Source: Escherichia phage UAE_MI-01
Sequence record: MW862804
DNA: 44,281 nt
Direction: 5' to 3' (one strand)
The notes beneath the pieces were generated by a model. That model was given only the letters and a program-made list of their open reading frames with translations. It did not search any database and was not told the origin of the DNA. Both the position numbers and the translations under genes were made by a program. Of the stretch, positions 961 to 41,534 are shown one piece after another. Each line of letters starts with the position of its first letter. The first letter of the stretch is position 1.

Positions 961-984
961 GTATTCTCCAATAAAAAGGGGCCG
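961..984 (-). terminator. Rho-independent terminator/attenuator between major tail protein and chaperone genes
   Basis: Minus-strand hairpin GGGGCCAGCACGGCCCC followed by TTTTTAT. Confidence 0.6.
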
Positions 985-1024
985 TGCTGGCCCCATATTA
1001 TCACTCGCTATTTAAGCGACCAAA

Positions 1025-5748: not shown

Positions 5749-5903
5749 GCTATCCCCCTGGGATTGTGGCAGAGCAGGCCACCCGCTCGACTTCACGCTT
5801 CTAATATTATCAGCGATAAAAATAATCGCAAAATTCGCTTGCGTTGCGGGAATTGGTTGCGCTATATTGGTTGCACACCAACAGAGATATGAAGGAAAAC
5901 AAG

Positions 5904-6218
5904 ATGACTAACATGACCGTAGCAACTCCAGTAGACGCCGCAATGGCCCGTTTCAATAAAGCTACCGTAGCGAACACCTTTACCTTTCACGCAATGCGTA
6001 ACGCGGAAGCGTTGAATCTGTGCCAGAGCATGAATGCTTCCGAAGCGGCAAAAGCGGCGATCAACTCCGCAACATTTGATAATCCGGCTTGCGGCCTGGT
6101 TCCGGCATCTTTCATAAACGCCCTGGTCGAAGCCTTTAACGATTTCATGTGCGTCGATGCCGTTGAAGCTGTATGTGCCCGCTTAACTTCCACCGGTGGC
6201 AACATCAAATTCAACTAA
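5904..6218 (+). CDS. Hypothetical protein (moron, opposite orientation to flanking structural genes)
   Basis: ATG 5904 with GAAGGA RBS; preceded by TTGGTTGCACACCAACA motif. Confidence 0.5.
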   Translation: MTNMTVATPVDAAMARFNKATVANTFTFHAMRNAEALNLCQSMNASEAAKAAINSATFDNPACGLVPASFINALVEAFNDFMCVDAVEAVCARLTSTGGNIKFN

Positions 6219-6257
6219 ACCAACCGGGGCGAAAGCCCCAATAATGAGGACATAAAA

Positions 6258-7042
6258 ATGAGACTGACGAAAGACATTAAAAATCAGATCCTGGCTAACA
6301 TCCTGCGCGACCACGAAATAGCGACCGAAGCCAAACAAATCATGATGGACTCGCGCGATCTGGCTTATGCCATTACGCTGGACTGTATGCCATTACGCTG
6401 GACTGTATGCCAGAAGGCATTCGCACGTTCGCAGCGCTCCGCGAGCATATCAAGGCAATTCGCGACGACCAGTCGCAGATGTACGGCGTCAGCGTATACA
6501 CCAACAAGGCGACGTATAGTTATAACTCCGACCGCCCGAAAGGTATCGGCAGCGTTTACAACGCCACTTTCGAAATCAACGCAGGCGGAAATGTTCGCAC
6601 CTTGTCATTGAGTGGAGACGGTCGCCAATACCGCGTGCATCGCGGGTACTGGGAAGAGAAATATATGAATAAGCTCGCGCCCGATCTCGGCGATATCGTT
6701 CCGGGGTTCGAGACAGTTATGCTGGCTTCAGTGTGCGAAGTGGACGAGGACGGGAAAGCGCTGCCGATATATCTCCCACGCGGTCGCGTAGACTACCCGG
6801 CGGACCATGACTTCTGTAAGCGCCTGGACCGCAACGACAAGGCCCGTAGCGAGTTGCGCGCGAAGTATGATGCGTTCAGACTCACCGTTACCGGTGTACT
6901 GGACCTGCACAATACTGACAAGAAGCTGATTAAAGCATGGCCTGAAGTTGAGCAATTCATCCCATACCCGGACAAGCCAAAATCCACGGCGGTGGCGCTG
7001 GATGTGAAAACACTCAACGAGATTTGCGGCATTCCGCGCTAA
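6258..7042 (+). pseudogene. Hypothetical moron gene split by a 20-bp tandem duplication (frames rejoin if one copy is removed)
   Basis: ORF 6258..6611 and ORF 6407..7042 are in different frames; the 20-mer TATGCCATTACGCTGGACTG occurs twice in tandem (6366..6405); deleting one copy restores one continuous ORF of about 255 codons. Confidence 0.6.
6366..6410 (+). repeat. Perfect 20-bp tandem duplication (2.25 copies) inside a coding region
   Basis: Direct reading. Confidence 0.9.
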
Positions 7043-7044
7043 CG

Positions 7045-7072
7045 AAAAAGGGGCCATTATGGCCCCTTAATT
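7045..7072. terminator. Bidirectional terminator between moron island and Rz1
   Basis: GGGGCC-attat-GGCCCC flanked by A-run and T-rich tract. Confidence 0.6.
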
Positions 7073-7287
7073 ATTTGCTGCAACTCCAGCACCTGCGCCC
7101 TTAGCTTCGCCCCGCATTCCATATTTTTCACGTCAATCATCAAATCCTCGTCGGGGTCTGCGGACGGGTTATCGAACTTGCACGGCGGTCGCAGTGCCGA
7201 CTCCGTTAGCGGCATCAACGGCACGTTGCTTGATCCGCACGCGCTCAGCATCAAAACTACAATCAGGGCGGTTAGGGCGCGTAACAT
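7057..7287 (-). CDS. Rz1: o-spanin (Rz1-like outer membrane lipoprotein), overlapping the Rz gene in another frame
   Basis: Signal peptide plus lipobox MLSAC, Pro-rich; start embedded in Rz reading frame and extending past Rz stop. Confidence 0.6.
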   Translation of the reverse strand: MLRALTALIVVLMLSACGSSNVPLMPLTESALRPPCKFDNPSADPDEDLMIDVKNMECGAKLRAQVLELQQIIKGP

Positions 7288-7498
7288 ATTTAACAACCTC
7301 TTTTGTAATGGTCCGGTACTCCACGTCGCGGGCTTGTTCTGCCTGCACGGAGCGCTCAATAACTTTAGTTTGCTGCCGTTGGGCTTGGGCTTGCGCTTCT
7401 TGCGCCGCCTCCGCCACTACGCCAGCGCGATAGGAGTCGCCTAGCCAGAATCCTACAGCCAGACCGATAACCAGTCCGATCGCTGCATATTTAATCAC
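7169..7498 (-). CDS. Rz: i-spanin (Rz-like)
   Basis: N-terminal TM segment (IGLVIGLAVGFWLG) followed by Gln/Ala-rich coiled coil; overlapped Rz1. Confidence 0.65.
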   Translation of the reverse strand: MIKYAAIGLVIGLAVGFWLGDSYRAGVVAEAAQEAQAQAQRQQTKVIERSVQAEQARDVEYRTITKEVVKYVTRPNRPDCSFDAERVRIKQRAVDAANGVGTATAVQVR

Positions 7499-8594
7499 GC
7501 CATAGCCCCCGGTTTTTAAGCTGTGCGATAGTCATTAGTTCGCCGGAATCGGTGAACATCTTCGGCACTTTCACGCCGCGCATAATCTGGTCGGCGCGTT
7601 GCACTCCATATAATTCCTCCAGGATATGGCGCGGCTGGCGCTGCACCCATGAGAAGAAATCAGTCTGCGCGTCGACCTGCTCACTCAGCAATCTGCCTGC
7701 GTCAGCCTTCAGTGCCGGACGCTTACCACTGGGCCAATCTTCCATACCTTTGACTTTCCACGTCTCCGTCGAACGGCAGCAATAATGTAGCTTGCCCGGA
7801 CCAGCGCCATATTGTGATCCCGCCACCACTTTCCCGCCACGCTTCCCTTTCGTATCGGGAGTAACATCAACCGGATAAAACAGGCGATCGCGTAGCTGGC
7901 ACATGGGAGAAGTATGCGTGTCCAATGTAGATAACCATTGGCGGCCTTCGAGAATATCGTCATTTGCTTTTACCATTAGTTCGCGGGCGGTCGCCGCGTA
8001 GTGGTTGACTGCGGACTTAACAACGCTTGAGATGGCTTGCGCACTACGACCGCCGAGCGCGCGCCTCACGTCCGCGATAATTTCCATAGTCGGCTTGCCC
8101 TGGATGAATCCGGCGCGCACCTGATTGCCGATCTGCGTCCTGGTCCACTCAGAAAGTGAATCAGGCCATTGCATCATGGTATTACCCTGGAACGGGTTTT
8201 TCATAGCCGTCGCTGCGATCTGCGCACCGGTCACTACGCCCACAACCTCAACCGCGGGCACAGCGACCACTGGCTGGATTGCTGCCGTTAGCGTGTCGGC
8301 GAGATAATCAGCCTCGGTGTCAGCGAACTCCTGAAGGCTTTCTGCCAGCGCCTTAAACTCGGTGCGCAGTTCCGTTTTGACGGTCTTGTCGAGTTGCGTT
8401 AGCAGGGTGGAAAGCGCCCTGTTATTCATTGACGATTTGCCATCAAGCAACTCGGTCAGCTTTCCCAGTAATGTGGGCCGGAACTTCTCCCACATAGCCA
8501 ACACCCTCCGCGCCTGGTCATTGCTCAGGCGCTGGGTGAAGATGTGACGGCGAATCATTCGATCCGCCATATATTGATTAATTGTCTTCGCCAT
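7491..8594 (-). CDS. Head morphogenesis / minor head protein (Mu F / SPP1 gp7-like, putative)
   Basis: 367 aa; immediately downstream of portal gene. Confidence 0.55.
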   Translation of the reverse strand: MAKTINQYMADRMIRRHIFTQRLSNDQARRVLAMWEKFRPTLLGKLTELLDGKSSMNNRALSTLLTQLDKTVKTELRTEFKALAESLQEFADTEADYLADTLTAAIQPVVAVPAVEVVGVVTGAQIAATAMKNPFQGNTMMQWPDSLSEWTRTQIGNQVRAGFIQGKPTMEIIADVRRALGGRSAQAISSVVKSAVNHYAATARELMVKANDDILEGRQWLSTLDTHTSPMCQLRDRLFYPVDVTPDTKGKRGGKVVAGSQYGAGPGKLHYCCRSTETWKVKGMEDWPSGKRPALKADAGRLLSEQVDAQTDFFSWVQRQPRHILEELYGVQRADQIMRGVKVPKMFTDSGELMTIAQLKNRGLWRD

Positions 8595-10098
8595 TGTCCG
8601 CTACCTTGTCCGGGTCTTCTTCGGTAGATTCTACCGCATCCGGGGACATTTGAGGCAATGGATTCTGATTTCGCAATTCGTCTTCCACCTGCTCGACGGT
8701 TTGCGAGTCGTCAATAACGCCCTGGGCCATCATCCACTTGATAAAGTCCGCCAGACGGACCGTACCGGTCTGCACACCCGCCATCATTGCGGTCATAAGC
8801 TGTGCGTCAACCGTGATTTCGGTGTAAAACTTATTCAGCGTTACGCGTTGGTCTGCGGTGTCGCCAGTGAACAGCTTAACGATTTGCAGCGCACGGTTGA
8901 AAGCCTTCTCAACGTTACCGGCAATCAGTGACAGGATACTGTTATCAGTCTGCGCATCGTAGGCCGCTTCAGTTGCCGTCTTCGGTGCGGTCCCCTTCTC
9001 GACCAGGGCCGCGCCCAGTTTAGCCATTTGCAATTCGCGTCGCTCACACAGTGCGACCGATAAGTTGCGCTCCTCCGCCTGAAGCAGTTTGGCGTCCATG
9101 TTCTGGCCCAGGATAACGCCCTTAGTTGCCCCGAGCGCGATTCCGCCTTTCAGGTTCTTGTCCGCCCACGATTGGGTCAGACCAGTCGCAATGAGGGTAG
9201 GTTGCCCCACGATGTGCGCAATCTCAGCGACGTCTGCTTCGGCGTTGTAGTGCTTAATGTTGAGGGACGCAATATCCGCCAGCGGTGCGGCGTCCGGTGT
9301 CGCGTTGTTGTCCACCGCACCACACCAGCAAAATGGCAGTTGAGTAAGCGCATTACCGGAGGCATCCACCAGCGGTACAAGATCGGTGCGGGTGAATCCA
9401 CGCGGCAAGTCCATTTGCACTTCTGACGTGTCTGCATTGTAAAACCAGCGGCGGGCGTGTGCCTTGCCGTCAATCATGCGAAGCTCGGTCCAGATGGTCA
9501 CTTCGTGGTTTGCGAAGTCGTCCGGGTCTTCGGTGCTGATTTCGTCTGTTTCCTTCAGCACAATTAGCGTATCTACGCCGTGGGTCTGCCGCCAGTTGAT
9601 GATCTGTTCAGCCGTATACAGGCGGATAAGCGGGCGGTGTGCTGCCATTTCAGCGGCGGTCTGCGGTACTACGTTACCCAGTTCGTCAAAATGCGCCTGG
9701 CGGTCGTAGTCGACCATAAACCCGGCACGGCCTGATTGCAGAACTTCAGACATAGCACCGCGCAGGAGTTGCGCCAGCGGCATACCGCTGCCGTCAACGT
9801 CATCAATCAGGTCAGCCATCGCCCCGGAAAGGTCCATACTCACCGGTTTGGCGAAGGCAACGCCTAACAGTGCATTCAGTGTGCGGGCGGTGGCGTTCAG
9901 GAAGACCGCACGTTGCTTATACGCCTTATAGCGTGCACGCGATTTCGGATCGGTAGTGTCGCCGCTGGCTGGGTGTGGCAGGTACAATGGCCCGCACGCC
10001 TTTACGGCGCGCTCCCCTGCCACACAATCACGGATCATTTTCCACTCGGGCGCGATGCGCGCATAGAGCGGGTGCTGGTTGTCAACGTTAACGGTCAT
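8578..10098 (-). CDS. Portal protein
   Basis: 506 aa; between terminase large subunit and head morphogenesis gene; acidic C-terminus. Confidence 0.75.
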   Translation of the reverse strand: MTVNVDNQHPLYARIAPEWKMIRDCVAGERAVKACGPLYLPHPASGDTTDPKSRARYKAYKQRAVFLNATARTLNALLGVAFAKPVSMDLSGAMADLIDDVDGSGMPLAQLLRGAMSEVLQSGRAGFMVDYDRQAHFDELGNVVPQTAAEMAAHRPLIRLYTAEQIINWRQTHGVDTLIVLKETDEISTEDPDDFANHEVTIWTELRMIDGKAHARRWFYNADTSEVQMDLPRGFTRTDLVPLVDASGNALTQLPFCWCGAVDNNATPDAAPLADIASLNIKHYNAEADVAEIAHIVGQPTLIATGLTQSWADKNLKGGIALGATKGVILGQNMDAKLLQAEERNLSVALCERRELQMAKLGAALVEKGTAPKTATEAAYDAQTDNSILSLIAGNVEKAFNRALQIVKLFTGDTADQRVTLNKFYTEITVDAQLMTAMMAGVQTGTVRLADFIKWMMAQGVIDDSQTVEQVEDELRNQNPLPQMSPDAVESTEEDPDKVADNGEDN

Positions 10099-10109
10099 GG
10101 TCGGTTTCC

Positions 10110-11495
10110 TTAGTAGAAGTCTACAGTAGGAACAGCGGCGATTGGACGAATCACAGGGAACAGGTGCGCAATAGGGTATCCCGCTGCGTCATTCATGTGG
10201 TCCACTCCTGCAGTTTTATCCGGCTCGCCTTTCTTAAGGTCGTACACCTGCTGTTCCAGACATTTCGCTAGTGTAGGGCATTTATCCAGGTTGACAAAAT
10301 ACTGGCGCACGCCCTTCGAGTTGCACATCATCGTATTCATCGCGATCAATCGGTCTTTCACAGGTGGGTTAACGCTGTCATATTCCACCTCGAAGCCAGC
10401 GTCTTCCAGTTGTGCGATATCGGACGACGACGCGTTGACCGTCTTGCGGGATTTGCCGCTGCTGTCCGGGTAAACGACAACACGACCGGCAGCACAATGA
10501 TCGGGGTAGCGCTCCTCGATCGCTTCAATCATAGCCGGGGTATCAAACAGGTCCACTAATTCATCCACGGCGTGAATCTCGTCGCGGAACTCCTTGTTCT
10601 CGGTGGTACGCTGCCGTCTTACATACACGACCGCCGCCATTTTCGTGACGTTAAAGTCCATACCGATAATCAGCGTATCTTCCGGTTGTACTTCTTCGGT
10701 GCTGGCGTTCTCCTCGCGATTGAACATCTTGTACACCGCGCCCGACGTAAGGTTAACAAACAGGCCGTTCAGGTACGCGTCGATCAGGTTAGCCGGGTAC
10801 TGACTGCGCAGCGTGTCGATAAAGTCTGCCGGTAAATGGTGGTTGTCTGTGGTCTTCGCCCGGATCAGGCGCTTTTGGCTATCCTTCTCCACCTCGAAAA
10901 TTTGGTACATCGCCCGGTAGCCTTCAGGCGTGGATACTATGACGAACTGGCGGACGAAGCCCGCACGCAGACGACCGAGCAATTTGTGATACGCCGCCAG
11001 CGCAACGTCTTGCTTCGTGGTGTCGAACTCGTCGGCAACAATCCACGCGGCGTTGACCCCGATCAGGCGAGTATAATTCTCCATTGATTCACAGATAACG
11101 CGAGTCCATTTGCCTTTCACCAGCACATTATAGATCTTGTCCTGCTTATTGAACTTCCACCGGAAGCCAGCCTCGTCAAACGCCTTTTCCAATTCCGGGT
11201 ACATGATCTTGACCAGGAGGGGAATAGTCGGCTCCGTCACAATGCCATCATGACCGGGGTTTAGTGTGAGAAGCTGGATTACCTTACGCGCAGCGACCCA
11301 CGACTTTCCGCCCCCGAAGCCGGAACACAGGCCGAGGATTTTAGTCTTCGTGTCGCGTAGTAGTTCGACCTGGTGCGGTAGGCAATCAGGCTGGTAAAGA
11401 CGCACCGCCTGCGCAACGCGTGTAGGGCGTGGCGGTCGGTTGCGCTTTGCGATCGCGCGTTCCAGTGCGCGGTGCTCTGCCGCATAGTTACGCAT
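10110..11495 (-). CDS. Terminase large subunit
   Basis: 461 aa; P-loop-like GFGGGKS near N-terminus; follows TerS-like gene with overlapping stop/start. Confidence 0.8.
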   Translation of the reverse strand: MRNYAAEHRALERAIAKRNRPPRPTRVAQAVRLYQPDCLPHQVELLRDTKTKILGLCSGFGGGKSWVAARKVIQLLTLNPGHDGIVTEPTIPLLVKIMYPELEKAFDEAGFRWKFNKQDKIYNVLVKGKWTRVICESMENYTRLIGVNAAWIVADEFDTTKQDVALAAYHKLLGRLRAGFVRQFVIVSTPEGYRAMYQIFEVEKDSQKRLIRAKTTDNHHLPADFIDTLRSQYPANLIDAYLNGLFVNLTSGAVYKMFNREENASTEEVQPEDTLIIGMDFNVTKMAAVVYVRRQRTTENKEFRDEIHAVDELVDLFDTPAMIEAIEERYPDHCAAGRVVVYPDSSGKSRKTVNASSSDIAQLEDAGFEVEYDSVNPPVKDRLIAMNTMMCNSKGVRQYFVNLDKCPTLAKCLEQQVYDLKKGEPDKTAGVDHMNDAAGYPIAHLFPVIRPIAAVPTVDFY

Positions 11496-12046
11496 TATTC
11501 GCCCTGGCCTTTGCCGGTAGGTTCCACTACGACGTCGCCGTTATCATCGTCGTCGTCATCCAGTGGGATATCGTCGCGGACTCCGTGGTTGGCTTTAAGC
11601 AGGAACGTAGCGAAGCCCGCCGCGATGGTTACGCCGCCAGCTTCCATCAGGAAAGTTTTCTGCAATTCCATAGCGTCCGCCATCGCCTCGGCGAACTCCT
11701 CATGTGCGCGCGCCCAGCGGTACAGGCAGGCAACGCCTACGCCAATTTCTGCGGCAAATCGGCCGAAGGTTGGCATTTTATTGCGCGGTATTACCTGCGC
11801 GGCCCCCTTATCAGAGTAGTTGACCTGCCAGGCTACGGCATCGGCGAAATAACGACGAAGCTGATCACAATACACAGTGCGGTAGTCGGTAGGGCGTCCG
11901 CATTTCCCGCCTTTACGGCGCTTGCCGTATTCGATCTCAGGTCCGAGATTGGTATGTTCGGTTTGCTCGCCTGGTTTACGGCGCGGGGTAACTGCGACTC
12001 GCCCGTCCAGTTTGGCGCGTCGGCCCTTAACTTTGATTTCTGCCAT
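11495..12046 (-). CDS. Terminase small subunit (putative)
   Basis: ATG 12046; basic N-terminus, HTH-like segment (FGRFAAEIGVGVACLYRWA), acidic tail; directly upstream of TerL. Confidence 0.55.
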   Translation of the reverse strand: MAEIKVKGRRAKLDGRVAVTPRRKPGEQTEHTNLGPEIEYGKRRKGGKCGRPTDYRTVYCDQLRRYFADAVAWQVNYSDKGAAQVIPRNKMPTFGRFAAEIGVGVACLYRWARAHEEFAEAMADAMELQKTFLMEAGGVTIAAGFATFLLKANHGVRDDIPLDDDDDDNGDVVVEPTGKGQGE

Positions 12047-12176
12047 GATATAAGCCCTTTTGTGCATATGCGCCGACCATCGGCAACATAGGAGACGGCC
12101 CTGCCATCTAACGGGGATTATAACAGGCACAAAAAAGCCCACCAAATCGGCAGGCTGGGGTGGTTACAGCGCTGGG

Positions 12177-13319
12177 TTACTTCAACATTTCCGGGCTAAT
12201 GGTTAAGCGTGCAACTTCGCCGTAGTTGGCGCTATAGGTAATGACGTTGGCGCTACGGCCGGACATCCAACCGCCACGACTGGCGTAGGCGTCTTTCGCT
12301 GCGAGCGTCCGGTGCTGTTCAACAATCATATTGCGAGACTCGACAATCTTCTGGTGGTGAAAATGGCCTACGTGCGCGTAGCTGTATTCGCTGGCCCCGA
12401 AAGCCTGTCTGAATTTAGAAATCATGACGGTTTCGATAGCGTCAAAGCGCGCTTTGTGCCCGTGGTGGAAGAATAGCGTGGTCTTACCGTGCTGCACCAT
12501 TTTGTAGACGTCCGGGGACGTATCCACATCGACGCGCGGCTCGTTCTCGTACAGCGTGTTGAACATCTCAGCAAGCCAAATCATGCCCGACTCATCATGA
12601 TTCCCCTGGACGATTAGCAGTTTGACTTTGTGGTGTTTTTGCAGCGCCAGTTCGACGACGTTGCGCACCATGCGAATCATGTAGCGGACAAGTTTCTGAT
12701 ATCGGGTGTCGGCGTCCAGTATGTGACCACTTGCCGGAGTGACAGCATCGAGGCTATCAAAGTGGGCCATATCACCGAGGATATTAATTACGGCAGTGCC
12801 TGCGTCCGGTGCGCGGGCGAAGGCTTCGACAAACCAGCGGTAGAACAGGTCTTCGGCGATCGCCATATCCCAGTCTTCGCCAGTCTCCTCGCCCCAGGCC
12901 AACATTCCCAGGTGGAAGTCTGACACGGTGTACAGGTTGAGCAAGTCGAGCGCCTGGATCGGGACTGGCGGGGCGTTTACTGGCGCTGCCGGTGTGATTT
13001 CGCTGTTCATACCCTCGACAACAGCGCGCATAGCTTCGAGTTGGCGCTCCTTGTCCTGCTCAGTGATAACCCACGACATGACCTCTTCGCCATTGCCGCG
13101 TACCAGGGCCGATACGCGCTTAACACCGAAGCCATCGGCAACGCGCTTGCGGATTACGGCATCGTTGCCGTGTCCAATGCCTTTTTTCGACAGGCGGGCT
13201 TTCCGCATGTAGACGTTTCGGAGGGACAAACCGTACTTCTTAGAAATCTCTTTCGATGTAGCGCCGGATTGTAATTCAGCAATCAATTGCTCGTCTGTGA
13301 TTTTAGTTTGCGGGTGCAT
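12177..13319 (-). CDS. HTH domain fused to calcineurin-like metallophosphoesterase
   Basis: ATG 13319 with AGGAAG RBS; N-terminal HTH-like segment (TSKEISKKYGLSLRNVYMRKARL); phosphoesterase motifs GDMAHFD, GNHD, HGH, GHFHH. Confidence 0.65.
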   Translation of the reverse strand: MHPQTKITDEQLIAELQSGATSKEISKKYGLSLRNVYMRKARLSKKGIGHGNDAVIRKRVADGFGVKRVSALVRGNGEEVMSWVITEQDKERQLEAMRAVVEGMNSEITPAAPVNAPPVPIQALDLLNLYTVSDFHLGMLAWGEETGEDWDMAIAEDLFYRWFVEAFARAPDAGTAVINILGDMAHFDSLDAVTPASGHILDADTRYQKLVRYMIRMVRNVVELALQKHHKVKLLIVQGNHDESGMIWLAEMFNTLYENEPRVDVDTSPDVYKMVQHGKTTLFFHHGHKARFDAIETVMISKFRQAFGASEYSYAHVGHFHHQKIVESRNMIVEQHRTLAAKDAYASRGGWMSGRSANVITYSANYGEVARLTISPEMLK

Positions 13320-13384
13320 AATTACTTCCTGATTATGGGACCGGGGACAATATATCACGGGACTTATCGAGGCGGGCAATAAAA

Positions 13385-13404
13385 AGCCCGGATAATACCG
13401 GGCT
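13385..13404. terminator. Bidirectional terminator hairpin
   Basis: AGCCCGG-ataata-CCGGGCT flanked by A5 and TTATT. Confidence 0.6.
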
Positions 13405-13411
13405 TTATTGT

Positions 13412-13579
13412 TTACGTCACGGGGTCAGATTCTTCCTGTGGCGGCGGGCTTGGCAGCTTCGCATCGAATACCCCAGCGTGGTTGATAGTATCCGCGATGA
13501 TAGCTCGCGCGCCAGGGTCTTCGGTTTTAGCCAGCGCGGCGAGCGCGTCGGCGTTATGATCAAGAATGCTTTTTAACAT
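13412..13579 (-). CDS. Small hypothetical protein (54 aa) downstream of endolysin
   Basis: ATG 13579 with GAGGAA RBS 16 nt after endolysin stop; stop just before terminator; translated by hand. Confidence 0.4.
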   Translation of the reverse strand: MLKSILDHNADALAALAKTEDPGARAIIADTINHAGVFDAKLPSPPPQEESDPVT

Positions 13580-13594
13580 ACTGTGTTCCTCGTA

Positions 13595-14086
13595 TTATGC
13601 TGCGTTACGACCGATTCTCTCGGCAACGTCCCACTGCTTACCATCAAACAACGCCTGTCTGCCGATTGCACGGCGCACCAGACCCTTAAGCACTTCGCCA
13701 CCCTGCTTGCGGAACTGCGGCAGAGTAGCTCGTACCTTCGCCCAGTCGCCCAGTCGCACCGCATCGTCAAAGTCGTTGGCAATGTTGTCCGGTACGATCG
13801 GGCCAGGACCGGCATTGATTACCAGGTCCACCAGCGCGTCGAATTGCGCCTGGTTAATGCTCGGATGCGCGTATTTGTTCACCCAGTCCTCGGCATACGC
13901 CACATCGCGCTTGAGCAGTTCCAGCGCTTCAGCACGGGTAATGCTTCGAGGCGGATTAGTGCCGGTGTGCCCATAACCCCAGGTGTACAGGCCGCGGGCC
14001 TGCTCTTTCTTGGTCGCGAAATACGGCACGGGGCTGAAAGCCTCCCATGCTGCCGTAAATCGTAGACCGTTATCACTGAATCGCAT
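13595..14086 (-). CDS. Endolysin (lysozyme, T4/P22-type glycoside hydrolase family 24)
   Basis: N-terminal catalytic signature E...YTWGYGHTG; follows two small membrane proteins. Confidence 0.75.
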   Translation of the reverse strand: MRFSDNGLRFTAAWEAFSPVPYFATKKEQARGLYTWGYGHTGTNPPRSITRAEALELLKRDVAYAEDWVNKYAHPSINQAQFDALVDLVINAGPGPIVPDNIANDFDDAVRLGDWAKVRATLPQFRKQGGEVLKGLVRRAIGRQALFDGKQWDVAERIGRNAA

Positions 14087-14318
14087 GTTTTACCCCATTT
14101 AAAACAGCATTACGCAGTGTGCGCAATGCAAACAGCCAGATTAACGCGGTCCAGGTGGTGTCCGATACGTCTCCTGTTTGCAACAATCCGATAAGACAGA
14201 CCATTGCCGTTAACAGATATAACACCCGGCCGAAGAAGCCATCCTGAACGGATGGCGCGTACACGTTAAACAGGGACGAAGCCCCTATGATAACAAACAA
14301 CAGGACGGTGATAATCAT
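14073..14318 (-). CDS. Holin-like small membrane protein
   Basis: 81 aa, at least two hydrophobic segments; overlaps endolysin start. Confidence 0.55.
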   Translation of the reverse strand: MIITVLLFVIIGASSLFNVYAPSVQDGFFGRVLYLLTAMVCLIGLLQTGDVSDTTWTALIWLFALRTLRNAVLNGVKHAIQ

Positions 14319-14605
14319 TTTGCGCCCCCCGGAAGGTGTAGCGACGCAATTGTCTCCCGGATCCGGTCAGCGATTGGCATCCAGAAGATGGCAGTTACGA
14401 AGCCCAAACCGGCGACAGTGCGCTCCCCGGACAAACCAGACCACTCGGCAATAGCTGGCGCACCAAATATGGCGCACAGGAAGCCAACTACGACATATAA
14501 AACGAAGTTCAACGGCCCTTTCGTCGCCTCGCCGTGAATGCGTGCGCCTACGAAGCCACCAGCAAGACACGCAAGGGCGAATAACCACTCGTTTAGCTTA
14601 TCCAT
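14315..14605 (-). CDS. Holin/antiholin-like membrane protein
   Basis: 96 aa, multiple hydrophobic segments; overlaps next gene (ATGA-type coupling). Confidence 0.5.
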   Translation of the reverse strand: MDKLNEWLFALACLAGGFVGARIHGEATKGPLNFVLYVVVGFLCAIFGAPAIAEWSGLSGERTVAGLGFVTAIFWMPIADRIRETIASLHLPGGAK

Positions 14606-14610
14606 AAAAA

Positions 14611-14638
14611 AGTCCCAGTAAGTTTTAGCTCACTGGGA
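14611..14638 (-). promoter_or_regulatory. Stem-loop immediately upstream of the first lysis-cassette start codon (possible attenuator or RBS-sequestering structure)
   Basis: Minus strand GTCCCAGT-12 nt-ACTGGGAC followed by TTTTTT and then ATG at 14605. Confidence 0.45.
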
Positions 14639-14657
14639 CTATATCACGCTTGCATAA

Positions 14658-14945
14658 TTAATCGAAAATAGACCACTTGCCGACGCCTTTCCACTCCCAC
14701 CCGGATGACCGGACGGCTTCGAATGTTCGACCGCCTATCATATCCCGATACCACAGCCACCACATGCGAATCCTGGTCGGGTGCTCCTTGATTCCACGGC
14801 GCTTGTATACCTCGAACGTCATGCGGGTAATGCTGGCAGCTTCGACGGCGGGCCAAATCAGGAAGACCCACACCAACAGCGCCAGCACCATAGCAAAGAG
14901 TGTCGCGCACCCCAATCCAAACCAATAAATCAAATCGTGTAACAT
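14658..14945 (-). CDS. Hypothetical membrane protein
   Basis: ATG 14945 with GGAAGGGG RBS; hydrophobic N-terminal half. Confidence 0.45.
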   Translation of the reverse strand: MLHDLIYWFGLGCATLFAMVLALLVWVFLIWPAVEAASITRMTFEVYKRRGIKEHPTRIRMWWLWYRDMIGGRTFEAVRSSGWEWKGVGKWSIFD

Positions 14946-15066
14946 CGTATTGCCCCTTCCGGTTTGCCGATATGGCGCGCCCATGCACGCGCCACGAAGT
15001 AATTGCGAAATACCCGACCGCCTATCTCAAATCGGTTATGCATCAGCATATCACGGATAGACGCGC

Positions 15067-15639
15067 TCATTTCAGAATCACCGAGCGCGGGTCGATAGCT
15101 TTCATGCTGCCGTCTTGTTCCACCCGGATGAATCCAACGCCGTATTCCAGCGCATGGCGCTGTGCATTCGTCACGGCATCAAAGCGATTGACGATTTCGT
15201 GTGCGGCGCGGCCCATATTCGCCTGCACCTGGTGGGAGTCGTAGGTTGCGTAGGCGTGTTGTGTCTTGCGGAACTCAACGCGCTCATGCGGATGGCGGTC
15301 ACGAAGGCGGTAGTTTCTGCCTACTCGCTCGTAGTTGATTAGCCCGAAAAATGCCACGCTCTTAACCATGTTGCCAGCTACGCCGCCCTTGCGCGTCTGC
15401 ATACGAAGGTTACTAAAACCCACATATTCTACGATCCACAATTGCCCGTCGCGGATATCACGCAGCACATCGCCGCGCTCAATATCGTGCGTGAGTACGT
15501 CGAAGAACTGCGGCAGCGTGTGTTTCGGTGCCCGCCACACCCGATTGCCTGCCGCGTTTTGTAGGCGGACGTAGGAATCCAGGGTCTGGATCGGCTTCAG
15601 GATTTTGCCATCGTGCTTACGGCGGAATAGTAATTTCAT
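15067..15639 (-). CDS. Hypothetical protein
   Basis: ATG 15639 with AAAGGAGA RBS; 190 aa. Confidence 0.5.
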   Translation of the reverse strand: MKLLFRRKHDGKILKPIQTLDSYVRLQNAAGNRVWRAPKHTLPQFFDVLTHDIERGDVLRDIRDGQLWIVEYVGFSNLRMQTRKGGVAGNMVKSVAFFGLINYERVGRNYRLRDRHPHERVEFRKTQHAYATYDSHQVQANMGRAAHEIVNRFDAVTNAQRHALEYGVGFIRVEQDGSMKAIDPRSVILK

Positions 15640-15652
15640 TGCTCTGTCTCCT

Positions 15653-15862
15653 TTAAAGTTTAACCGTGCCGCACTTGTCGCACACGATGATTTCTTGCTG
15701 GTGGTCGTGGTTGCATTCGCTTTCGTCGATCTCGTCGGCGGTAAGGTTGTCGCCGTCACATACCGTAGCGATGCCGTAATGCTTGTAGTCGTCGTGGCAG
15801 GATTCCAGGTCGATAAACTCCTGCGAGAATCCCTCCATTAGTGTTTTTTGCATTGGTGTCAT
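15653..15862 (-). CDS. Small Cys-rich (zinc-ribbon-like) protein
   Basis: 69 aa; C-terminal CDKC pair plus additional Cys/His; ATGA start/stop coupling with upstream gene. Confidence 0.45.
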   Translation of the reverse strand: MTPMQKTLMEGFSQEFIDLESCHDDYKHYGIATVCDGDNLTADEIDESECNHDHQQEIIVCDKCGTVKL

Positions 15863-16128
15863 TTGCTCAGTCTCCAGTGTTTGCTTACCCGCTCAACGGC
15901 AGGCTTCCGGCGTAATGTAATACGAATGCCAATTGGTTGCAAGGACGTTTTTATGGCTAACCCATGCTCCCTGGCGAACTGGTGCAAGTAGCGAGTCTGC
16001 GTTAATGGCTTCACATCATCGCGGTAGCACCAGAACACAGAATCGCCCTCATTCGCATTCTTAGCCCATATTCGTACGCAATGCAGTGGGATGCTCCACG
16101 AAAGGCGTTTTGCGCGTCTGCGGTCCAT
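15859..16128 (-). CDS. Hypothetical protein
   Basis: 89 aa; tightly packed in operon. Confidence 0.4.
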   Translation of the reverse strand: MDRRRAKRLSWSIPLHCVRIWAKNANEGDSVFWCYRDDVKPLTQTRYLHQFAREHGLAIKTSLQPIGIRITLRRKPAVERVSKHWRLSK

Positions 16129-16137
16129 TTTGGCCCC

Positions 16138-16443
16138 TTATTTCGCAAGCTGGGCGAATAGTTCGCGCTGGGCTTTAATCCGGGCGACGTTTGTCACTGC
16201 TGTCTCACCGATCCCGAAGCGATACGCCAGGCGCTCGCGGGCAAAAGCCATCGCATATTCGCAGATTGCCACGCGCAGCGGTTCTAGTTCGTCCAGGCTG
16301 GCGAACATATCGTCGAACGCGTGCATGATTCCCTGCTGGGCCAGGATGACAACCTGGCGAGCGTCGTCTGCGTTGCCGTCTGTGTGCTTCGCTTCATACA
16401 GCTTCGCCACCGCCATTGTGTAATTCCAGATTAAAGCTCTCAT
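16138..16443 (-). CDS. Hypothetical protein (first gene of the minus-strand operon)
   Basis: ATG 16443 with AAGAGGA RBS; TTGGTTGC motifs upstream. Confidence 0.45.
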   Translation of the reverse strand: MRALIWNYTMAVAKLYEAKHTDGNADDARQVVILAQQGIMHAFDDMFASLDELEPLRVAICEYAMAFARERLAYRFGIGETAVTNVARIKAQRELFAQLAK

Positions 16444-16659
16444 CGTTCAGTCCTCTTGTTGGTGTGCAACCAAAATAGCAGGGTGCCAGGGTGAATGCAA
16501 CCAATATTAATCACGCGTATGAAAAAGTTGATCGCTATCTGCTGTGACTGCAAACTGCATTTCTCACCCTCCATTCTGCAACTCGCATTGGTTGCCTAGT
16601 TCATCGACGACCGCAATCCGCATCATGCTGCCGTGCGTTATGCAATCCTGGATTTTATG

Positions 16660-16850
16660 CAGTCTCAGACGAGGGGGGTGACAGACCCCCCGTCTAGTCT
16701 GAAAGACTGGGGTTTGTCCCGCTTGTCCCGCCCCCCCCCAGGCCGCGTCATCCGTGGGTGGGACGGGGTGCTGTCCCGCTTTGTCCCGCCCCTGGTCTGT
16801 CCCGCTTTTTGTCCCGCTTAGTTTATGCAGTTTTATTGCATAACTATGCA
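16660..16850. repeat. Noncoding module copy B: hairpin, mini-hairpin, GTCCCGC heptamer array (6-7 copies), C9 homopolymer, palindrome TTATGCA-gttttat-TGCATAA at 16823..16843
   Basis: Direct reading; about 85-90% identical to the junction copy over the conserved core. Confidence 0.85.
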
Positions 16851-16902
16851 CTATATTCACACTACACGGCAACCAATGCGACCGCCTAAAAGCCCATAAA
16901 AT

Positions 16903-16983
16903 GGCAACCAATGCGCGCAAAATTTAATCATTTACCGATATGGGAATTCCCATAACGGCAACCAATGCGCGCAAAATTTAATC
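16903..16983. repeat. Two 27-bp direct repeats GGCAACCAATGCGCGCAAAATTTAATC (16903..16929, 16957..16983) flanking a perfect 16-bp palindrome TATGGGAATTCCCATA (16939..16954); third partial copy at 16868..16882
   Basis: Direct reading; lies at and just beyond the 3' end of the primase gene. Confidence 0.8.
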
Positions 16984-19242
16984 TTTTAAATCGTCATCGG
17001 TCGCTGAAAGCGTGATAGGGATATCCGATTTGATGACCAAATTAGACGACCCATAGATGGCCCCGGTGTGCGGATCGGTATAGAAACCTATCACTCCGCG
17101 CTCCACCATATCGTCGATTGCCTTCGTCGAAGTGCCACCTTTTGCGAGTCCCGCCTGGCGGACGATTGCCGATTTACTGAATCCGGTATGGTCCGGGTTA
17201 TCTTCCATCAGTTTTTCCAGTGCCGCATAAAGCACTTTCTCTTTTTCATTGCGCGGTCCGGCGGTGTTCTCTTCCTTAACTGCGGCCTTGCCTGCTGCCT
17301 TCGCCTGTTCGATGGCGAACGGTGCCAGGGCAACCGGTACAAGATACAGCGTCTCATCGCGCGGGGTGGATGCAATCGGCTTGACGTCCCAACCGGCAAC
17401 CACATCTCCGAAGTCTGGCCCGGTGCTGGTGGACTGGTGTGCCTCGAACGCTTCTGACTTGCGGAGATCCACCTTAACTTTGCACTTGAGCAGGACGAAG
17501 CCGCGCGGCGCTTGCTTGATGCCGTTACGTGACTTTTCGTGATACAGGTTCAATTGTCCGGGCTGGTTGTCGTCCGGCTGTTCCAGGAAGAAAGCGGAAT
17601 CGACAGCACCATGCAGCGCGCCGGACCCGCGTGGGGTTCTGCTGCCGTTTGCACCTTTCGCCGGGTGGTGAATGACGCCCGCACTGCCACCTGTGTTTTC
17701 CGCGATGGCCTTCAGAGCTTTGACCACTTCGCCCATATCGCTGGCGTTGTTCTCGTCGAACGGTTTAGCATCGGCGGACCGCAACGCAACCGTCTGGTTG
17801 AGTGAGTCGAACGCCACCAGGCCAACCGGCTCGCCGTTAGCGGTGCGGTTGATAAAGCTGATAACTTCACGCAAGCCAGATTTGCTGGTGATATCCCAGC
17901 CGCGGGATTGCAGATCGATAATGTGCAGCTTGTCCAGGTCGTGCTCGTATTTAATCTGCAATGCTTCTTTACGCTGGTTGGAGGCTTCACCACCTTCCGC
18001 GTCGAAATAGAAGCAATGAGACTGGACGACCTTCGCACCGCCGAACGGGATCCCTGCGGCAACCGCGCCCATTTGGCCCAGCACATAGAAAGACTTACCG
18101 ATATTCGACTCACCCGCCATGTACCAGGTCGATTTAAAGTTAATCAACCCCTCGATAATCGGGTCGTGCTTACTGAACAGCGCGACCGGCTCGTTATCCA
18201 GATCCGCATCGGTGCACACGCCGTATTCTTCGCCGTCGCCAACCGCATCAACAATATGTTCGTATAAGGATTCGACTTCCTCGTCGTCCAGCCCCGGAAG
18301 GATGGCGGCGATTTGCTTGCGCGACATGTTGTGTGGCTCGACGTTCAGGTGGTCCGGGATCCCGATAAGACGCAGCGCCAGGTGCTGGTGTCTGTTCAGT
18401 TCCGAGCAACACTCGTTGCCGGTGTGCATACACTTGAAACGGATCTCGCCATCCTTGACCATAATGGCGGTGGACCCTTCGCCGCTGTGCAGATGTTCGT
18501 TCGGGCACGGCACTTCATAACCGCGACCGGAAGATAACTCCTCGAATCCTGCCTGGAAGCACCAGTCCAGAATGCCGTCTGCCACTGCGTCGTCGCCCTG
18601 GGTCAGTTCGCGGCGGACTTCCTCTTTCTCAACTCCCAGCTTGTCCGCCAGGCGGAGCAGACGACGGACGCGGGCGCGCTTGCCATAGTGGCATTTAATA
18701 ACAGACTGCTGGTGTGGCAGGTACATCAGGCGGTTTGTGTCTTTCGTGCAGTCGTCGAAGTCCACATCTGACAGGCCCAGTTGGTGTAATAGCGCATACT
18801 GGACACGGCCCAGGTCTTCAGCCGGTACAGGCTTGTCAGTGAGTACCAGGAATCGAGCGCAACGCGTGCCGCCTTTCAGTGGGTGACGGTCGCCGGTTGT
18901 GGTGTGGAAGACGTGCTCCAGCCCCGCGTCAGTGAACGCCTTACGGCAACGGCGTAAAGTGCGGGTGTCGGTGCGGTCAATATCGAAGAACAGGATCGAG
19001 CGGTCCACCGCACTGGTCTTACGACGCAATCCGTCACTGGTATACGCCACGATGCCGTCGGCCTTACGCTTGCGGCGCGCATACTCGGCTTTATCTTCTG
19101 TCTTGTTGATATGCACCGAGGAGATTTCTTTCGCATCTTTGATAAATTCGAAAAATTCATCGGTGGTCATCTGGAAGTTTTCCGCCCTGGCTTTTTCGCC
19201 TTTTTTAGCGGGTCTTGTTACAGCGAATTTAATTAAGCTCAT
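16978..19242 (-). CDS. Bifunctional primase-polymerase / P-loop (RecA/DnaB-like) replicative NTPase
   Basis: 754 aa; N-terminal FFDIDR-type primase-polymerase motif, Cys/His zinc-binding cluster, Walker A GESNIGKS in C-terminal half. Confidence 0.7.
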   Translation of the reverse strand: MSLIKFAVTRPAKKGEKARAENFQMTTDEFFEFIKDAKEISSVHINKTEDKAEYARRKRKADGIVAYTSDGLRRKTSAVDRSILFFDIDRTDTRTLRRCRKAFTDAGLEHVFHTTTGDRHPLKGGTRCARFLVLTDKPVPAEDLGRVQYALLHQLGLSDVDFDDCTKDTNRLMYLPHQQSVIKCHYGKRARVRRLLRLADKLGVEKEEVRRELTQGDDAVADGILDWCFQAGFEELSSGRGYEVPCPNEHLHSGEGSTAIMVKDGEIRFKCMHTGNECCSELNRHQHLALRLIGIPDHLNVEPHNMSRKQIAAILPGLDDEEVESLYEHIVDAVGDGEEYGVCTDADLDNEPVALFSKHDPIIEGLINFKSTWYMAGESNIGKSFYVLGQMGAVAAGIPFGGAKVVQSHCFYFDAEGGEASNQRKEALQIKYEHDLDKLHIIDLQSRGWDITSKSGLREVISFINRTANGEPVGLVAFDSLNQTVALRSADAKPFDENNASDMGEVVKALKAIAENTGGSAGVIHHPAKGANGSRTPRGSGALHGAVDSAFFLEQPDDNQPGQLNLYHEKSRNGIKQAPRGFVLLKCKVKVDLRKSEAFEAHQSTSTGPDFGDVVAGWDVKPIASTPRDETLYLVPVALAPFAIEQAKAAGKAAVKEENTAGPRNEKEKVLYAALEKLMEDNPDHTGFSKSAIVRQAGLAKGGTSTKAIDDMVERGVIGFYTDPHTGAIYGSSNLVIKSDIPITLSATDDDLKD

Positions 19243-19252
19243 TGCCGTGGCC

Positions 19253-19582
19253 TTACTTAGAAGTTTTATTATTGCGTACCCAGGAGCGCACTGTGCTCTG
19301 ATTAATCCCAGTCAACTCGGCAATCATCGCCCATGATTTGCCCTCGGCGCGCAAACGGATAACCTGCTTTTTGTATTCTTCCATTTCTTCATTGTGCTTC
19401 TGCAGCTTGCTTGCTGCCGTGCCGTTGAGCAATTCCAGCCTGGCGCGTAATTCTTTTTCTACACTGCGCAGACGTTCAATCTCAAATAGCACCGCCCCCA
19501 CGGCATCGGTATACGCCCATGACCGGCTTGTCTCACTGCAAACAGTCTTCGTTAACATTTCGATTGCGTCGTTGATATTCAT
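19253..19582 (-). CDS. HTH DNA-binding regulator (putative)
   Basis: 109 aa; coiled-coil middle, C-terminal HTH-like segment (KSWAMIAELTGINQSTVRSWVRN); palindrome GTTGGT-taatga-ACCAAC 14 nt upstream of its start. Confidence 0.5.
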   Translation of the reverse strand: MNINDAIEMLTKTVCSETSRSWAYTDAVGAVLFEIERLRSVEKELRARLELLNGTAASKLQKHNEEMEEYKKQVIRLRAEGKSWAMIAELTGINQSTVRSWVRNNKTSK

Positions 19583-19759
19583 TGCTCTGCCCTCAGTTGG
19601 TTAATGACCAACGAAACTACACCTAAAACCGAAAGGTGTCAAATCCTTTGGATATTGAAACGGGCGCGCACGCGTGTAATAATAATTCCCGTCTCATTGT
19701 CTCTTATTGGTTAGCGCCGTCGCATTTTGCCTCGGCGCTTTTTTTTTTGAAATTAGTTG

Positions 19760-19788
19760 TTGACTCCCTTCTGCAACCAATCTAATAT
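19760..19788 (+). promoter_or_regulatory. Sigma70-like early promoter (TTGACT-17 bp-TAATAT) with CAACCAAT motif in the spacer and a T10 tract upstream
   Basis: Direct reading of the -35/-10 hexamers and spacing. Confidence 0.55.
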
Positions 19789-19984
19789 TCACTCCGTCGA
19801 CAGGATGCAGGACGCAAACTGGAGAGGGGCAACGCAGGGGCCGGATCGAAGTGTCAGGATTCCCAACCGTGATTATATAACCAGGTCCACTACCCGAAAG
19901 GGAGAACGCGTAACCTGGCAATATGTTAAGGCCACCGACGAAGTTTACTGCCGACACCTAAACTTAACCAATCGGAGATACACC

Positions 19985-20527
19985 ATGTTTGAACAAATCG
20001 TAAACCTGATCACTCGCGGCGTAGTAGCACTGGAAATCATCGCTAAACATTATGAAACCGTTGGCGCTGCCGTAGACCCAAAAGCAAACGGCACTGCTAA
20101 GAAAGGCAAGGCCAAGCCAGATACTGAAGTCGAAGACGACGACGATCAGGACGAAGTCGAAGATACGCCTAAAACGAAAAAAGGCGCGGCAAAAGAAACC
20201 AAGTCTAAAGGTAAGGCCAAAAAAGAAGTCGTAGAAGATGACGACGACGATGACGCCGATGACGTGAAGCCAGCGAAGGGTAAAAAAGCTCCGGCGAAAG
20301 GCAAAGGCAAGAAAGATGCCGATCCGCTGGCAGAGATGCGCGACGAGATCAAACAGTATGCCGCTATTATCGCTGGTGGTGACGACGACGATGCCAACGA
20401 CGAATTCGACGACCTGCTGGAAGCGTTCGAGATCAAATCAATCGCCAAGCTGGAAGATGACGACGTCGAAGACTTCCACAAAGACCTGAAAGAAATCGTC
20501 GAAACCTATTTCGAATTGGAAGATTAA
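19985..20527 (+). CDS. Highly charged early protein with alternating Lys-rich and Asp/Glu-rich blocks
   Basis: ATG 19985 with GGAGAT RBS; first gene of the plus-strand operon; followed by terminator. Confidence 0.55.
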   Translation: MFEQIVNLITRGVVALEIIAKHYETVGAAVDPKANGTAKKGKAKPDTEVEDDDDQDEVEDTPKTKKGAAKETKSKGKAKKEVVEDDDDDDADDVKPAKGKKAPAKGKGKKDADPLAEMRDEIKQYAAIIAGGDDDDANDEFDDLLEAFEIKSIAKLEDDDVEDFHKDLKEIVETYFELED

Positions 20528-41499: not shown

Positions 41500-41534
41500 A
41501 AAAAGCCCCCACGATGGATGTGAGGGCCATTTTA

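Follow-up and report, generated by a model that had tools for sequence, protein, structure and literature searches.

A conserved hairpin adjoining the first holin gene of Dhillonvirus coliphages: a candidate terminator, translational lock and embedded promoter

In Escherichia phage UAE_MI-01 (sequence record MW862804), a stem-loop of 12 base pairs (bp) and the T-run that follows it directly adjoin the start codon of the first of three lysis genes, and our analysis suggests that this element may combine an intrinsic terminator for the genes upstream, a translational lock on any RNA that reads through, and an embedded promoter from which the lysis genes would be expressed. The window, by which we mean the whole stretch of 44,281 bp that was analysed, with positions counted from its first letter, covers approximately an entire genome, in reversed orientation relative to the KarlBarth record. 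Its sequence marks it as a Dhillonvirus genome that is close to complete; the 2.4 kb surrounding the hairpin matched 155 phage records at 80-95% identity, which with few exceptions belong to Escherichia phages of the genus Dhillonvirus (HK578-like siphoviruses). The hairpin and the lysis, terminase and spanin genes all lie on the minus strand, on which the site reads 5′-...TAATTATGCAAGCGTGATAT AGTCCCAGTGAG CTAAAA CTTACTGGGACT TTTTT ATG GAT AAG-3′ (coordinates in Table 1).

The hairpin is real and conserved, and it is almost certainly functional. By itself it folds with a computed energy of -19.3 kcal/mol, six of its 12 stem pairs being G-C, and its 76-nucleotide (nt) context folds at -24.8 kcal/mol compared with -11.5 ± 2.8 kcal/mol for shuffled sequences (z = -4.83; none of 200 shuffles was as stable). 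It is the highest-scoring terminator-like match within positions 6000..20000 and has the sequence features of an intrinsic terminator, i.e. a stable GC-containing stem, a short loop and a U-rich tract immediately 3′. A search of Rfam with the element returned no family at the gathering threshold, the best match being NsiR1 with 29.3 bits against a threshold of 39, which reflects a generic hairpin-plus-U-tail likeness. A preliminary description, made from the letters alone, had reported a stem-loop and T-run adjoining the ATG of the 14315..14605 gene with no free Shine-Dalgarno (SD) sequence, and this proved correct, as the sole purine-rich or SD-like element 5′ of the ATG is the GGGA inside the 3′ arm. 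The computed duplex of this GGGA with the anti-SD sequence is worth -3.9 kcal/mol, compared with -5 to -10 kcal/mol for most other genes of the window. That description had also named the use of a different start codon as an outcome that would count against it. The correct start codon is the ATG at 14605, which no other start precedes in the holin open reading frame (ORF), and the N-terminus that it opens, MDK[L/F], is shared with the Kagunavirus holins. In the divergent phage Ioannina the N-terminus is different (MEVFHKLDEW), and the ATG still adjoins the T-run. The next in-frame candidate, a TTG at 14512, was rejected, given that it would remove the first transmembrane segment and that the N-terminus is kept across genera.

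The position of the GGGA and the start codon relative to the stem has a clear consequence in computed folds. On RNA that reads through from upstream, the calculated unpaired probability was 0.00 for the SD-like bases and 0.13 for the AUG, compared with 0.29-0.46 and 0.45-0.56 respectively on RNA starting at 14633-14629. In the minimum free energy fold the flanking CGUGA is paired with UUAUG. The translation initiation region is thus predicted to be occluded by the hairpin, and one feature of bacteriophage T4 gene e-type control, namely an SD and/or start codon sequestered on RNA initiated upstream, was found in silico. Structure-controlled translation of this first, translationally coupled lysis gene is plausible, because the SD-like bases and AUG are occluded in the modelled read-through RNA and the comparative data described below favour selection on pairing. 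Of the two proposals in the preliminary description, attenuation or structure-controlled translation, it is the latter that gains from the occluded initiation region and the conserved pairing; no sign of a sensing attenuator was seen in the element.

The element is invariant in approximately 30 relatives. In 15 Dhillonvirus sequences aligned with MAFFT, the block made up of CGTGATATAGT, the stem, the T-run and the ATG shows no change, and differences do occur in the coding sequence farther upstream, at the two positions that precede CGTG, within the loop and among the holin codons; further Dhillonvirus contigs from metagenomes display the same pattern of an invariant block. Among relatives the T-run comprises five to seven T residues. 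In Ioannina and one contig of the same type (L034) a change of CCC to CCCC in the 5′ arm is matched by one of GGG to GGGG in the 3′ arm, a compensated C/G insertion, and this type also has an A-U to G·U change in the stem. The stem pairs were read directly and not by MAFFT pair counting, as all rows but two are invariant and the compensated insertion is not aligned structurally. Scans of viral contigs and a single metagenome scan yielded Dhillonvirus, Kagunavirus and MED16-like sequences only, and covariation within the genus is thin. Taken with the other lineages carrying this holin family, these comparative data point to selection on pairing.

The Kagunavirus holin is approximately 46% identical with Dhillonvirus holin 1, and the corresponding element has the form CGTG[G/C]T-ATCCTCCAG-(22-nt loop)-CTGGAGGAT-TCATC-TTG, in which ATCCTCCAG is the 5′ arm and CTGGAGGAT the 3′ arm. 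The 3′ arm holds the SD GGAGGA, 6 nt 5′ of the TTG start, and is followed by no U-run. Our Kagunavirus sample comprised 39 viral contigs and approximately 35 metagenome contigs. In all 39 of the former, every stem variant retains or gains pairs (A to G giving G·U; an extra G-C pair in L050; 13 of 13 pairs in L065); among the latter, one contig (L102) has lost a stem pair, and two single variants fall on opposite sides of one pair. When the stems of the two genera were aligned by eye on their common CCAG/CTGG core, four positions were found to differ on both sides and still to be paired. The genes 5′ of the holin are non-homologous between Dhillonvirus and Kagunavirus, and the regulatory block therefore travels with the lysis cassette. 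A third lineage is represented by the unclassified coliphage KW1E_UTAR, the holin of which is approximately 35% identical; here the scan called a terminator hairpin (374..396) directly after TTGACC-17-TACTAT (345..373), and T8 and the holin ATG follow the hairpin, so that the -10 ends 1 nt before the hairpin. In the 3′ arm, GGGGA of KW1E_UTAR and GGAGGA of Kagunavirus are the positional equivalents of our GGGA (14616..14613). Judged by sequence, the feature conserved across lineages is a helix that would occlude the holin initiation region, and in Dhillonvirus the same helix is also the putative terminator. More distant holin relatives do not show the abutting layout: Pectobacterium phage Wc4-1 and Pseudomonas phage Amjad_SA have no such element, and in Serratia phage Scapp and Pantoea phage MED16 a terminator is followed by a leader of approximately 40-60 nt with a free SD.

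If the hairpin both terminates and masks, the lysis genes need a way around it, and the likely bypass is a feature absent from the preliminary description, namely a promoter-like extended -10 element, TGATATAGT, which overlaps the 5′ arm. Read as TG-A-TATAGT, it agrees with the extended -10 consensus TGnTATAAT at seven of the eight specified positions and with the hexamer at five of six. In relatives the element is unchanged, and variation begins immediately 5′ of it. Transcription would be expected to start approximately 7 nt downstream, near G14631/A14630, and the resulting RNA would lack the 5′ arm. A -10 element overlaps or adjoins the 5′ arm in all three lineages: in Kagunavirus it is TG[G/C]TATCCT, overlapping the arm, with the full form TTA[A/G]GA-16-TG[G/C]TATCCT, and the sole variable base of this motif (G/C) is the 'n' of TGn. 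Just 5′ of the Kagunavirus -10-like element we also observed a small inverted repeat, AGGATAATTCCT (approximately 1440..1460 in contigs L017 and L077 and 38140..38160 in K1ind1), which folds or could bind a dimeric regulator; at the equivalent place Dhillonvirus has an AT-rich TTAATTA.

Similar arrangements are found at two junctions further downstream, 5′ of the exonuclease gene and 5′ of the small terminase gene, where terminator hairpins are followed by extended -10 elements (Table 1). At the same exonuclease junction, Ioannina has a terminator and then CCGTGGTATATT, and at the terminase junction Ioannina and K1ind1 have different terminators, then TGATATAAT or TTATATAAT. On this comparison, it is the presumed function of the terminator-plus-extended -10 modules that Ioannina and K1ind1 retain, and the sequences differ. 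The stretch from lysis to packaging genes is probably several transcription units rather than one operon; the statement in the preliminary description that the lysis genes share an operon with the terminase genes is doubtful, as it is contiguity on one strand that links them, and two terminator-plus-promoter-like modules and the exonuclease gene intervene. Three of the five matches to TGNTATANT in the window fall, on the coding strand, in the three intergenic gaps at the hairpin, the exonuclease gene and the terminase gene, and all three matches to CGTGNTATNNT lie on the minus strand within 1.7 kb. The looser motif TGnTAnnnT ends at the hairpin base in four of 12 late-strand terminator-like hairpins, where approximately 0.1 would be expected from motif density, and in none of 39 hairpins of a comparison set consisting of the other strand of the window, the minus strand of Ioannina and both strands of K1ind1 (Fisher p ~0.002). 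This enrichment is supportive only, because stop codons (TGA, TAA, TAG) and terminator A-tracts feed some of the matches, and the case for the promoter rests on position and conservation.

As a side observation, the promoter at the head of the replication unit (19614..19642) couples a perfect -35 to a weak -10, and the downstream candidate promoters have an extended -10 and no recognisable -35. A switch that prevents recognition of the -35 (T4 AsiA-like) would be in keeping with such a split of promoter types; no such factor was identified.

From the structure, conservation, motif positions and computed accessibility of the element, we infer a model in which termination, a transcription start, promoter activity and an effect on the timing of lysis are all predicted. 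The hairpin and U-run would act as an intrinsic terminator, ending the upstream unit that begins at the perfect -35 promoter near 19642 and carries the regulator with a helix-turn-helix (HTH), the primase-helicase and small genes. On RNA that escapes termination, the weak SD GGGA would be held in the 3′ arm and the CGUGA/UUAUG pairing would cover the AUG, leaving the holin gene untranslated. This lock would extend to the whole cassette, because each of the two genes that follow, for the second holin and for the endolysin, overlaps the gene before it (by ATGA and by 14 nt respectively) and would be translationally coupled to it. The TGATATAGT promoter, overlapping the 5′ arm, would initiate approximately 7 nt downstream of itself (G14631/A14630) to give an RNA without that arm, on which no terminator could form, which would not be terminated and which would present an open, A/U-rich leader of 26 nt. 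The outcome would be a lysis cassette expressed from its own promoter only. We regard this complete model of terminator, translational lock and embedded promoter as tentative, its chance of being right falling a little below even.

Several observations weigh against it. The -35 region is poor (TTCGAT), and a sigma-70 scan did not call the TGATATAGT site; genome-wide, the -10-type motif is not over-represented (25 occurrences against 21.7 expected; 5 against 2.85 expected). At two other sites where the motif precedes a hairpin, the TG or TA bases stem from stop codons or the terminator A-tract. Conservation of the motif may itself serve pairing, as CGUGA pairs with UUAUG, and the ATCCT of Kagunavirus is constrained by pairing with the SD. 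Within Dhillonvirus the entire intergenic region is invariant, and the promoter is inseparable from the hairpin by conservation alone for that reason. Late timing would also call for more than a plain sigma-70 promoter. Finally, in the literature on promoters, terminators and transcriptomes of Dhillonvirus, HK578 and Kagunavirus we found no transcript-end, reporter or ribosome data.

One rival reading dispenses with an internal promoter. The hairpin would be a leaky terminator that stops most transcription from upstream and a translational damper that further reduces initiation at the holin AUG; the lysis genes would be expressed from minor read-through RNA, and the slow build-up of holin would set the time of lysis. 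The canonical terminator features of the hairpin, its weak and sequestered SD, the absence of genome-wide enrichment of the -10-type motif, and the possibility that CGTG is conserved for pairing with the start codon are all in keeping with it, as is the Kagunavirus hairpin, which has no U-run, does no more than mask the SD of a weak TTG start and would be a constitutive damper. Holins need only modest expression, and the S gene of phage lambda has an SD-masking stem-loop (sdi). Set against these points is that in each of three lineages, with different sequences, the 5′ arm coincides precisely with a -10-type hexamer, with a good -35 at 17 nt in KW1E_UTAR, and that the genera share the regulatory block and not the upstream gene. 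A stem of -19 kcal/mol followed by U6 predicts little read-through, and the two modules further downstream (13349 and 12117) clearly have -10 elements of their own. We consider a leaky damper possible, although rather unlikely.

Regulated termination in the style of lambda tR′, with a phage factor or ribosome position permitting late read-through by antitermination or attenuation, would account for the position of the hairpin between replication and lysis/packaging genes on one strand, and the 20 nt 5′ of the hairpin are conserved highly enough to be a protein-binding site. The operon does start with an HTH/sigma-70 region-4-like protein (19253..19582), and this small protein was the only late-sigma or antiterminator candidate found with Pfam; no Q-, N- or other antiterminator-like protein was found by Pfam and PHROG searches of 19 neighbouring proteins, which are not every gene of the window. 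The folds show no alternative (anti-terminator) pairing, the Kagunavirus version is not a terminator, and on read-through RNA the initiation region would stay masked, so we judge regulated termination improbable. Melting of the stem by a ribosome terminating at the upstream stop codon was ruled out at this site, since that stop (of the 14658..14945 gene) lies 17 nt before the hairpin, too far for such a ribosome to reach the stem.

A mere 3′-end stabiliser or processing site for the upstream mRNA, the position at the holin start then being a by-product of genome compaction, would fit a tightly packed genome with many intergenic terminator-like hairpins, and terminator hairpins do protect RNA 3′ ends, but we give it little credence: the abutment to the start codon survives the N-terminal coding change in Ioannina and is also present in KW1E_UTAR, the part conserved in Kagunavirus is the pairing to the SD and not a U-run, and other hairpins of the genome (3831, 35344 and 994) have a free SD 3′ of the T-run, and therefore compaction does not force loss of the SD. 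A simple terminator for the upstream gene was named in the preliminary description as an outcome that would speak against it. The hairpin does have all the sequence features of an ordinary intrinsic terminator; its stem also masks the start region.

The features of the combined terminator, lock and promoter can be set beside several known systems. With a canonical intrinsic terminator it shares the GC-containing 12-bp stem, the 6-nt loop and the U-tract immediately 3′, and differs in that the U-tract runs into the start codon and the stem contains SD-like bases and overlaps a -10-like element. In the late region of lambda, pR′ and tR′ are subject to Q antitermination and the sdi stem-loop lies at the initiation region of S, the holin gene. 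The likenesses are a terminator ahead of the holin gene, where the late lysis and packaging genes begin, the masking of the holin SD by an RNA stem, and lysis genes followed by terminase. The differences are that neither a Q-like protein nor a qut-type arrangement was found here, that the holin is without a dual-start motif, and that the candidate promoter is upstream of the terminator stem and overlaps it, as opposed to approximately 190 nt before it in lambda.

The closest parallel is with T4, in which genes e, soc, 49 and I-TevI have late promoters within the 5′ strand of a hairpin that sequesters the ribosome-binding site (McPheeters et al. 1986, reviewed in PMC3014915). As with gene e, a lysis gene is preceded by a hairpin holding the SD and/or AUG on long transcripts initiated upstream, and a promoter is situated in or at the 5′ strand, so that its own transcripts, without that strand, are translatable, as is here predicted. 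Unlike gene e, the promoter proposed here is of the host sigma-70 extended -10 type, whereas T4 uses the gp55 late promoter TATAAATA; the hairpin has a U-run and should also terminate upstream transcription; and the gene that would be gated is a holin at the head of a coupled holin-holin-endolysin cassette. The T4-type late promoter TATAAATA, used by gp55/gp33-modified polymerase, is not present at the site, and the phage is an unrelated siphovirus. By analogy, then, the element would act like the T4 case and is not a member of the T4 regulon, and it is best filed as putative T4 e-type control fused to an intrinsic terminator. A physical coupling of the initiation and termination signals of adjacent units is also reported for the coupled or overlapping promoters and terminators of bacteria (bioRxiv 10.64898/2026.08.19.745784).

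The wider setting of the element is summarized in Table 1. Along the minus strand, the early-type promoter is followed by the HTH/sigma-70 region-4-like gene, the primase-helicase gene with small ORFs, and the hairpin; then come the two holin genes, the endolysin gene, a 55-amino acid (aa) ORF, a terminator plus -10 and the exonuclease gene; and after a further terminator plus -10 follow the small and large terminase, portal, head-morphogenesis and Rz/Rz1 genes and a terminator at 7068..7048, before which the spanin genes are the last.

Table 1. Positions of the features discussed, numbered as in the 44,281-bp window
Feature	Position	Strand	Remarks
Early-type promoter, perfect -35 TTGACA (19642..19637), weak -10 TAGTTT	19614..19642	-	Head of replication-gene unit
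HTH/sigma-70 region-4-like protein, small	19253..19582	-	Pfam; first gene of operon
Upstream gene, 95-aa predicted membrane protein of unknown function	14658..14945	-	phrog_2531; last gene of replication/early unit
Extended -10-like element TGATATAGT	14646..14638	-	Last 3 nt are first 3 nt of hairpin 5′ arm
Hairpin, 12 pairs, 6-nt loop CTAAAA	14640..14611	-	5′ arm AGTCCCAGTGAG 14640..14629; loop 14628..14623; 3′ arm CTTACTGGGACT 14622..14611
Weak SD-like GGGA, 7 nt 5′ of AUG	14616..14613	-	Within 3′ arm
T-run (T6 counting last stem base)	14611..14606	-	Putative terminator U-tract, and spacer between SD-like bases and AUG
ATG start of holin gene 1	14605..14603	-	Directly adjoins T-run
Holin-family gene 1, 96 aa	14315..14605	-	phrog_2359, E = 5e-31; no Pfam match
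Holin-family gene 2, 81 aa	14073..14318	-	phrog_2508; its ATG overlaps gene 1 stop (ATGA)
Endolysin, GH24-type phage lysozyme	13595..14086	-	PF00959 (Phage_lysozyme), E = 6e-21; start overlaps end of holin gene 2 by 14 nt
Terminator hairpin 13406..13383 and extended -10-like TGATATATT 13357..13349	13349..13406	-	5′ of exonuclease gene (ATG 13319)
Terminator hairpin 12156..12136 and perfect extended -10 TGTTATAAT 12125..12117	12117..12156	-	5′ of small terminase gene
Overlapped i-spanin 7169..7498 and o-spanin 7057..7287 (lipobox LSAC)	7057..7498	-	phrog_2536/5672; annotated as spanins in relatives
Second hairpin adjoining a start codon, TGATAAAAT-GGCCCTCAC-ATCCATC-GTGGGGGCT-TTTT-ATG	41537..41497	-	Directly 3′ of tape-measure stop; ATG of minor tail gene
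Terminator-like hairpin 994..978 after major tail gene, TGATAATAT ending at its base	978..1003	-	Free SD (GGAG) 3′ of T-run

The identities given to the lysis genes in the preliminary description, two membrane proteins and an endolysin with the Rz/Rz1 spanins elsewhere, are upheld by phrog_2359, phrog_2508, PF00959 and the Rz-like character of the spanins. The set expected of holin-endolysin-spanin lysis in Gram-negative hosts is present, i.e. holins with multiple transmembrane domains, a muralytic enzyme, and an i-spanin with a lipoprotein o-spanin. Lysis genes placed before terminase had been called unusual, which they are not: lysis genes directly 5′ of terminase are the order of lambda and P22. 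In the Dhillonvirus records examined and in K1ind1, holin-holin-endolysin precedes terminase and Rz/Rz1 follow the head-morphogenesis gene, an order kept in all the Dhillonvirus and Kagunavirus records examined and already annotated. The split of the lysis genes is thus accurately described, and ordinary. The spanins of HK578, EP23, SO-1 and K1G have already been catalogued in the 'Jersey' overlapped spanin family (Kongari et al. 2018, PMC6139136), and those of T4 (pseT.3/pseT.2) are likewise unlinked from genes t and e (PMC6139136). Our phage resembles both in that its spanin genes lie apart from those for holin and endolysin, and differs in that the two halves lie at the two ends of a same-strand stretch from holin to spanin, with internal terminator-plus-promoter modules between them.

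A number of further observations concern the surroundings of these genes. The 95-aa membrane protein encoded upstream of the hairpin could conceivably have a role in lysis or superinfection exclusion. Plus-strand ORFs (approximately 5844..7042) separate Rz1 from the scaffold gene and interrupt the late strand there, much like the opposite-strand genes of YD-2008.s, and the hairpin that bounds them (7048..7068) has a terminator score on both strands. A region at approximately 16444..16977, 3′ of the primase-helicase gene, is without a confident gene; its equivalent in Sodalis phage SO-1 (2179..2658 of contig L079, 480 bp) is annotated as 'region B', with direct, inverted and palindromic repeats, and could be an origin or a regulatory region. 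Among the matched records, OQ221563.1, labelled Acinetobacter phage NJ01, is approximately 90% identical with Escherichia coli Dhillonviruses and may carry a mislabelled host, and in PQ843332.1 (P-GXEC-L2P5, 88.6 kb) the region is present twice, which may indicate a concatenated assembly.

Two other sites in the window resemble the holin junction. At the hairpin between the tape-measure and minor tail genes, the 3′ arm contains an SD-like GGGGG and a free SD is lacking; Ioannina retains this site, with another loop and U-A in place of U·G. Beyond the major tail gene, where in our window TGATAATAT ends at the base of the terminator-like hairpin, Ioannina has TGTTAACAT before a different hairpin. 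It is conceivable, although we would not expect it on present indications, that Dhillonviruses and other coliphages with this holin family possess a reusable promoter-inside-terminator cassette of approximately 45 nt, in which the -10 hexamer is sited at the 5′ arm, the 3′ arm holds the SD, and the spacer between SD and AUG is the U-run. Such a cassette would do three jobs, halting upstream transcription, rendering read-through RNA untranslatable, and starting a hairpin-free, translatable mRNA, and it may recur at the holin junction and at the tape-measure/minor-tail junction, with a partial form after the major tail gene. Early transcription could moreover occlude the embedded promoter, because upstream polymerases cross it before terminating, and this could provide a factor-free delay of lysis and late genes.

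If lysis genes are instead expressed through a leaky terminator, the element is a terminator of the ordinary kind, and its masking of a weak ribosome-binding site is incidental. If the proposed combination of terminator, lock and promoter is correct, a small virulent siphophage, without its own RNA polymerase or a recognisable antiterminator, would silence its lysis genes on transcripts of the replication operon by means of one element of approximately 45 nt, and the T4 lysozyme paradigm would reach to sigma-70 promoters, holin genes and terminator hairpins. Such an element would offer synthetic biology an insulator part consisting of terminator, translational lock and promoter, and it would provide a means of retiming lysis in the Dhillonvirus and Kagunavirus phages, which are often proposed for therapy.

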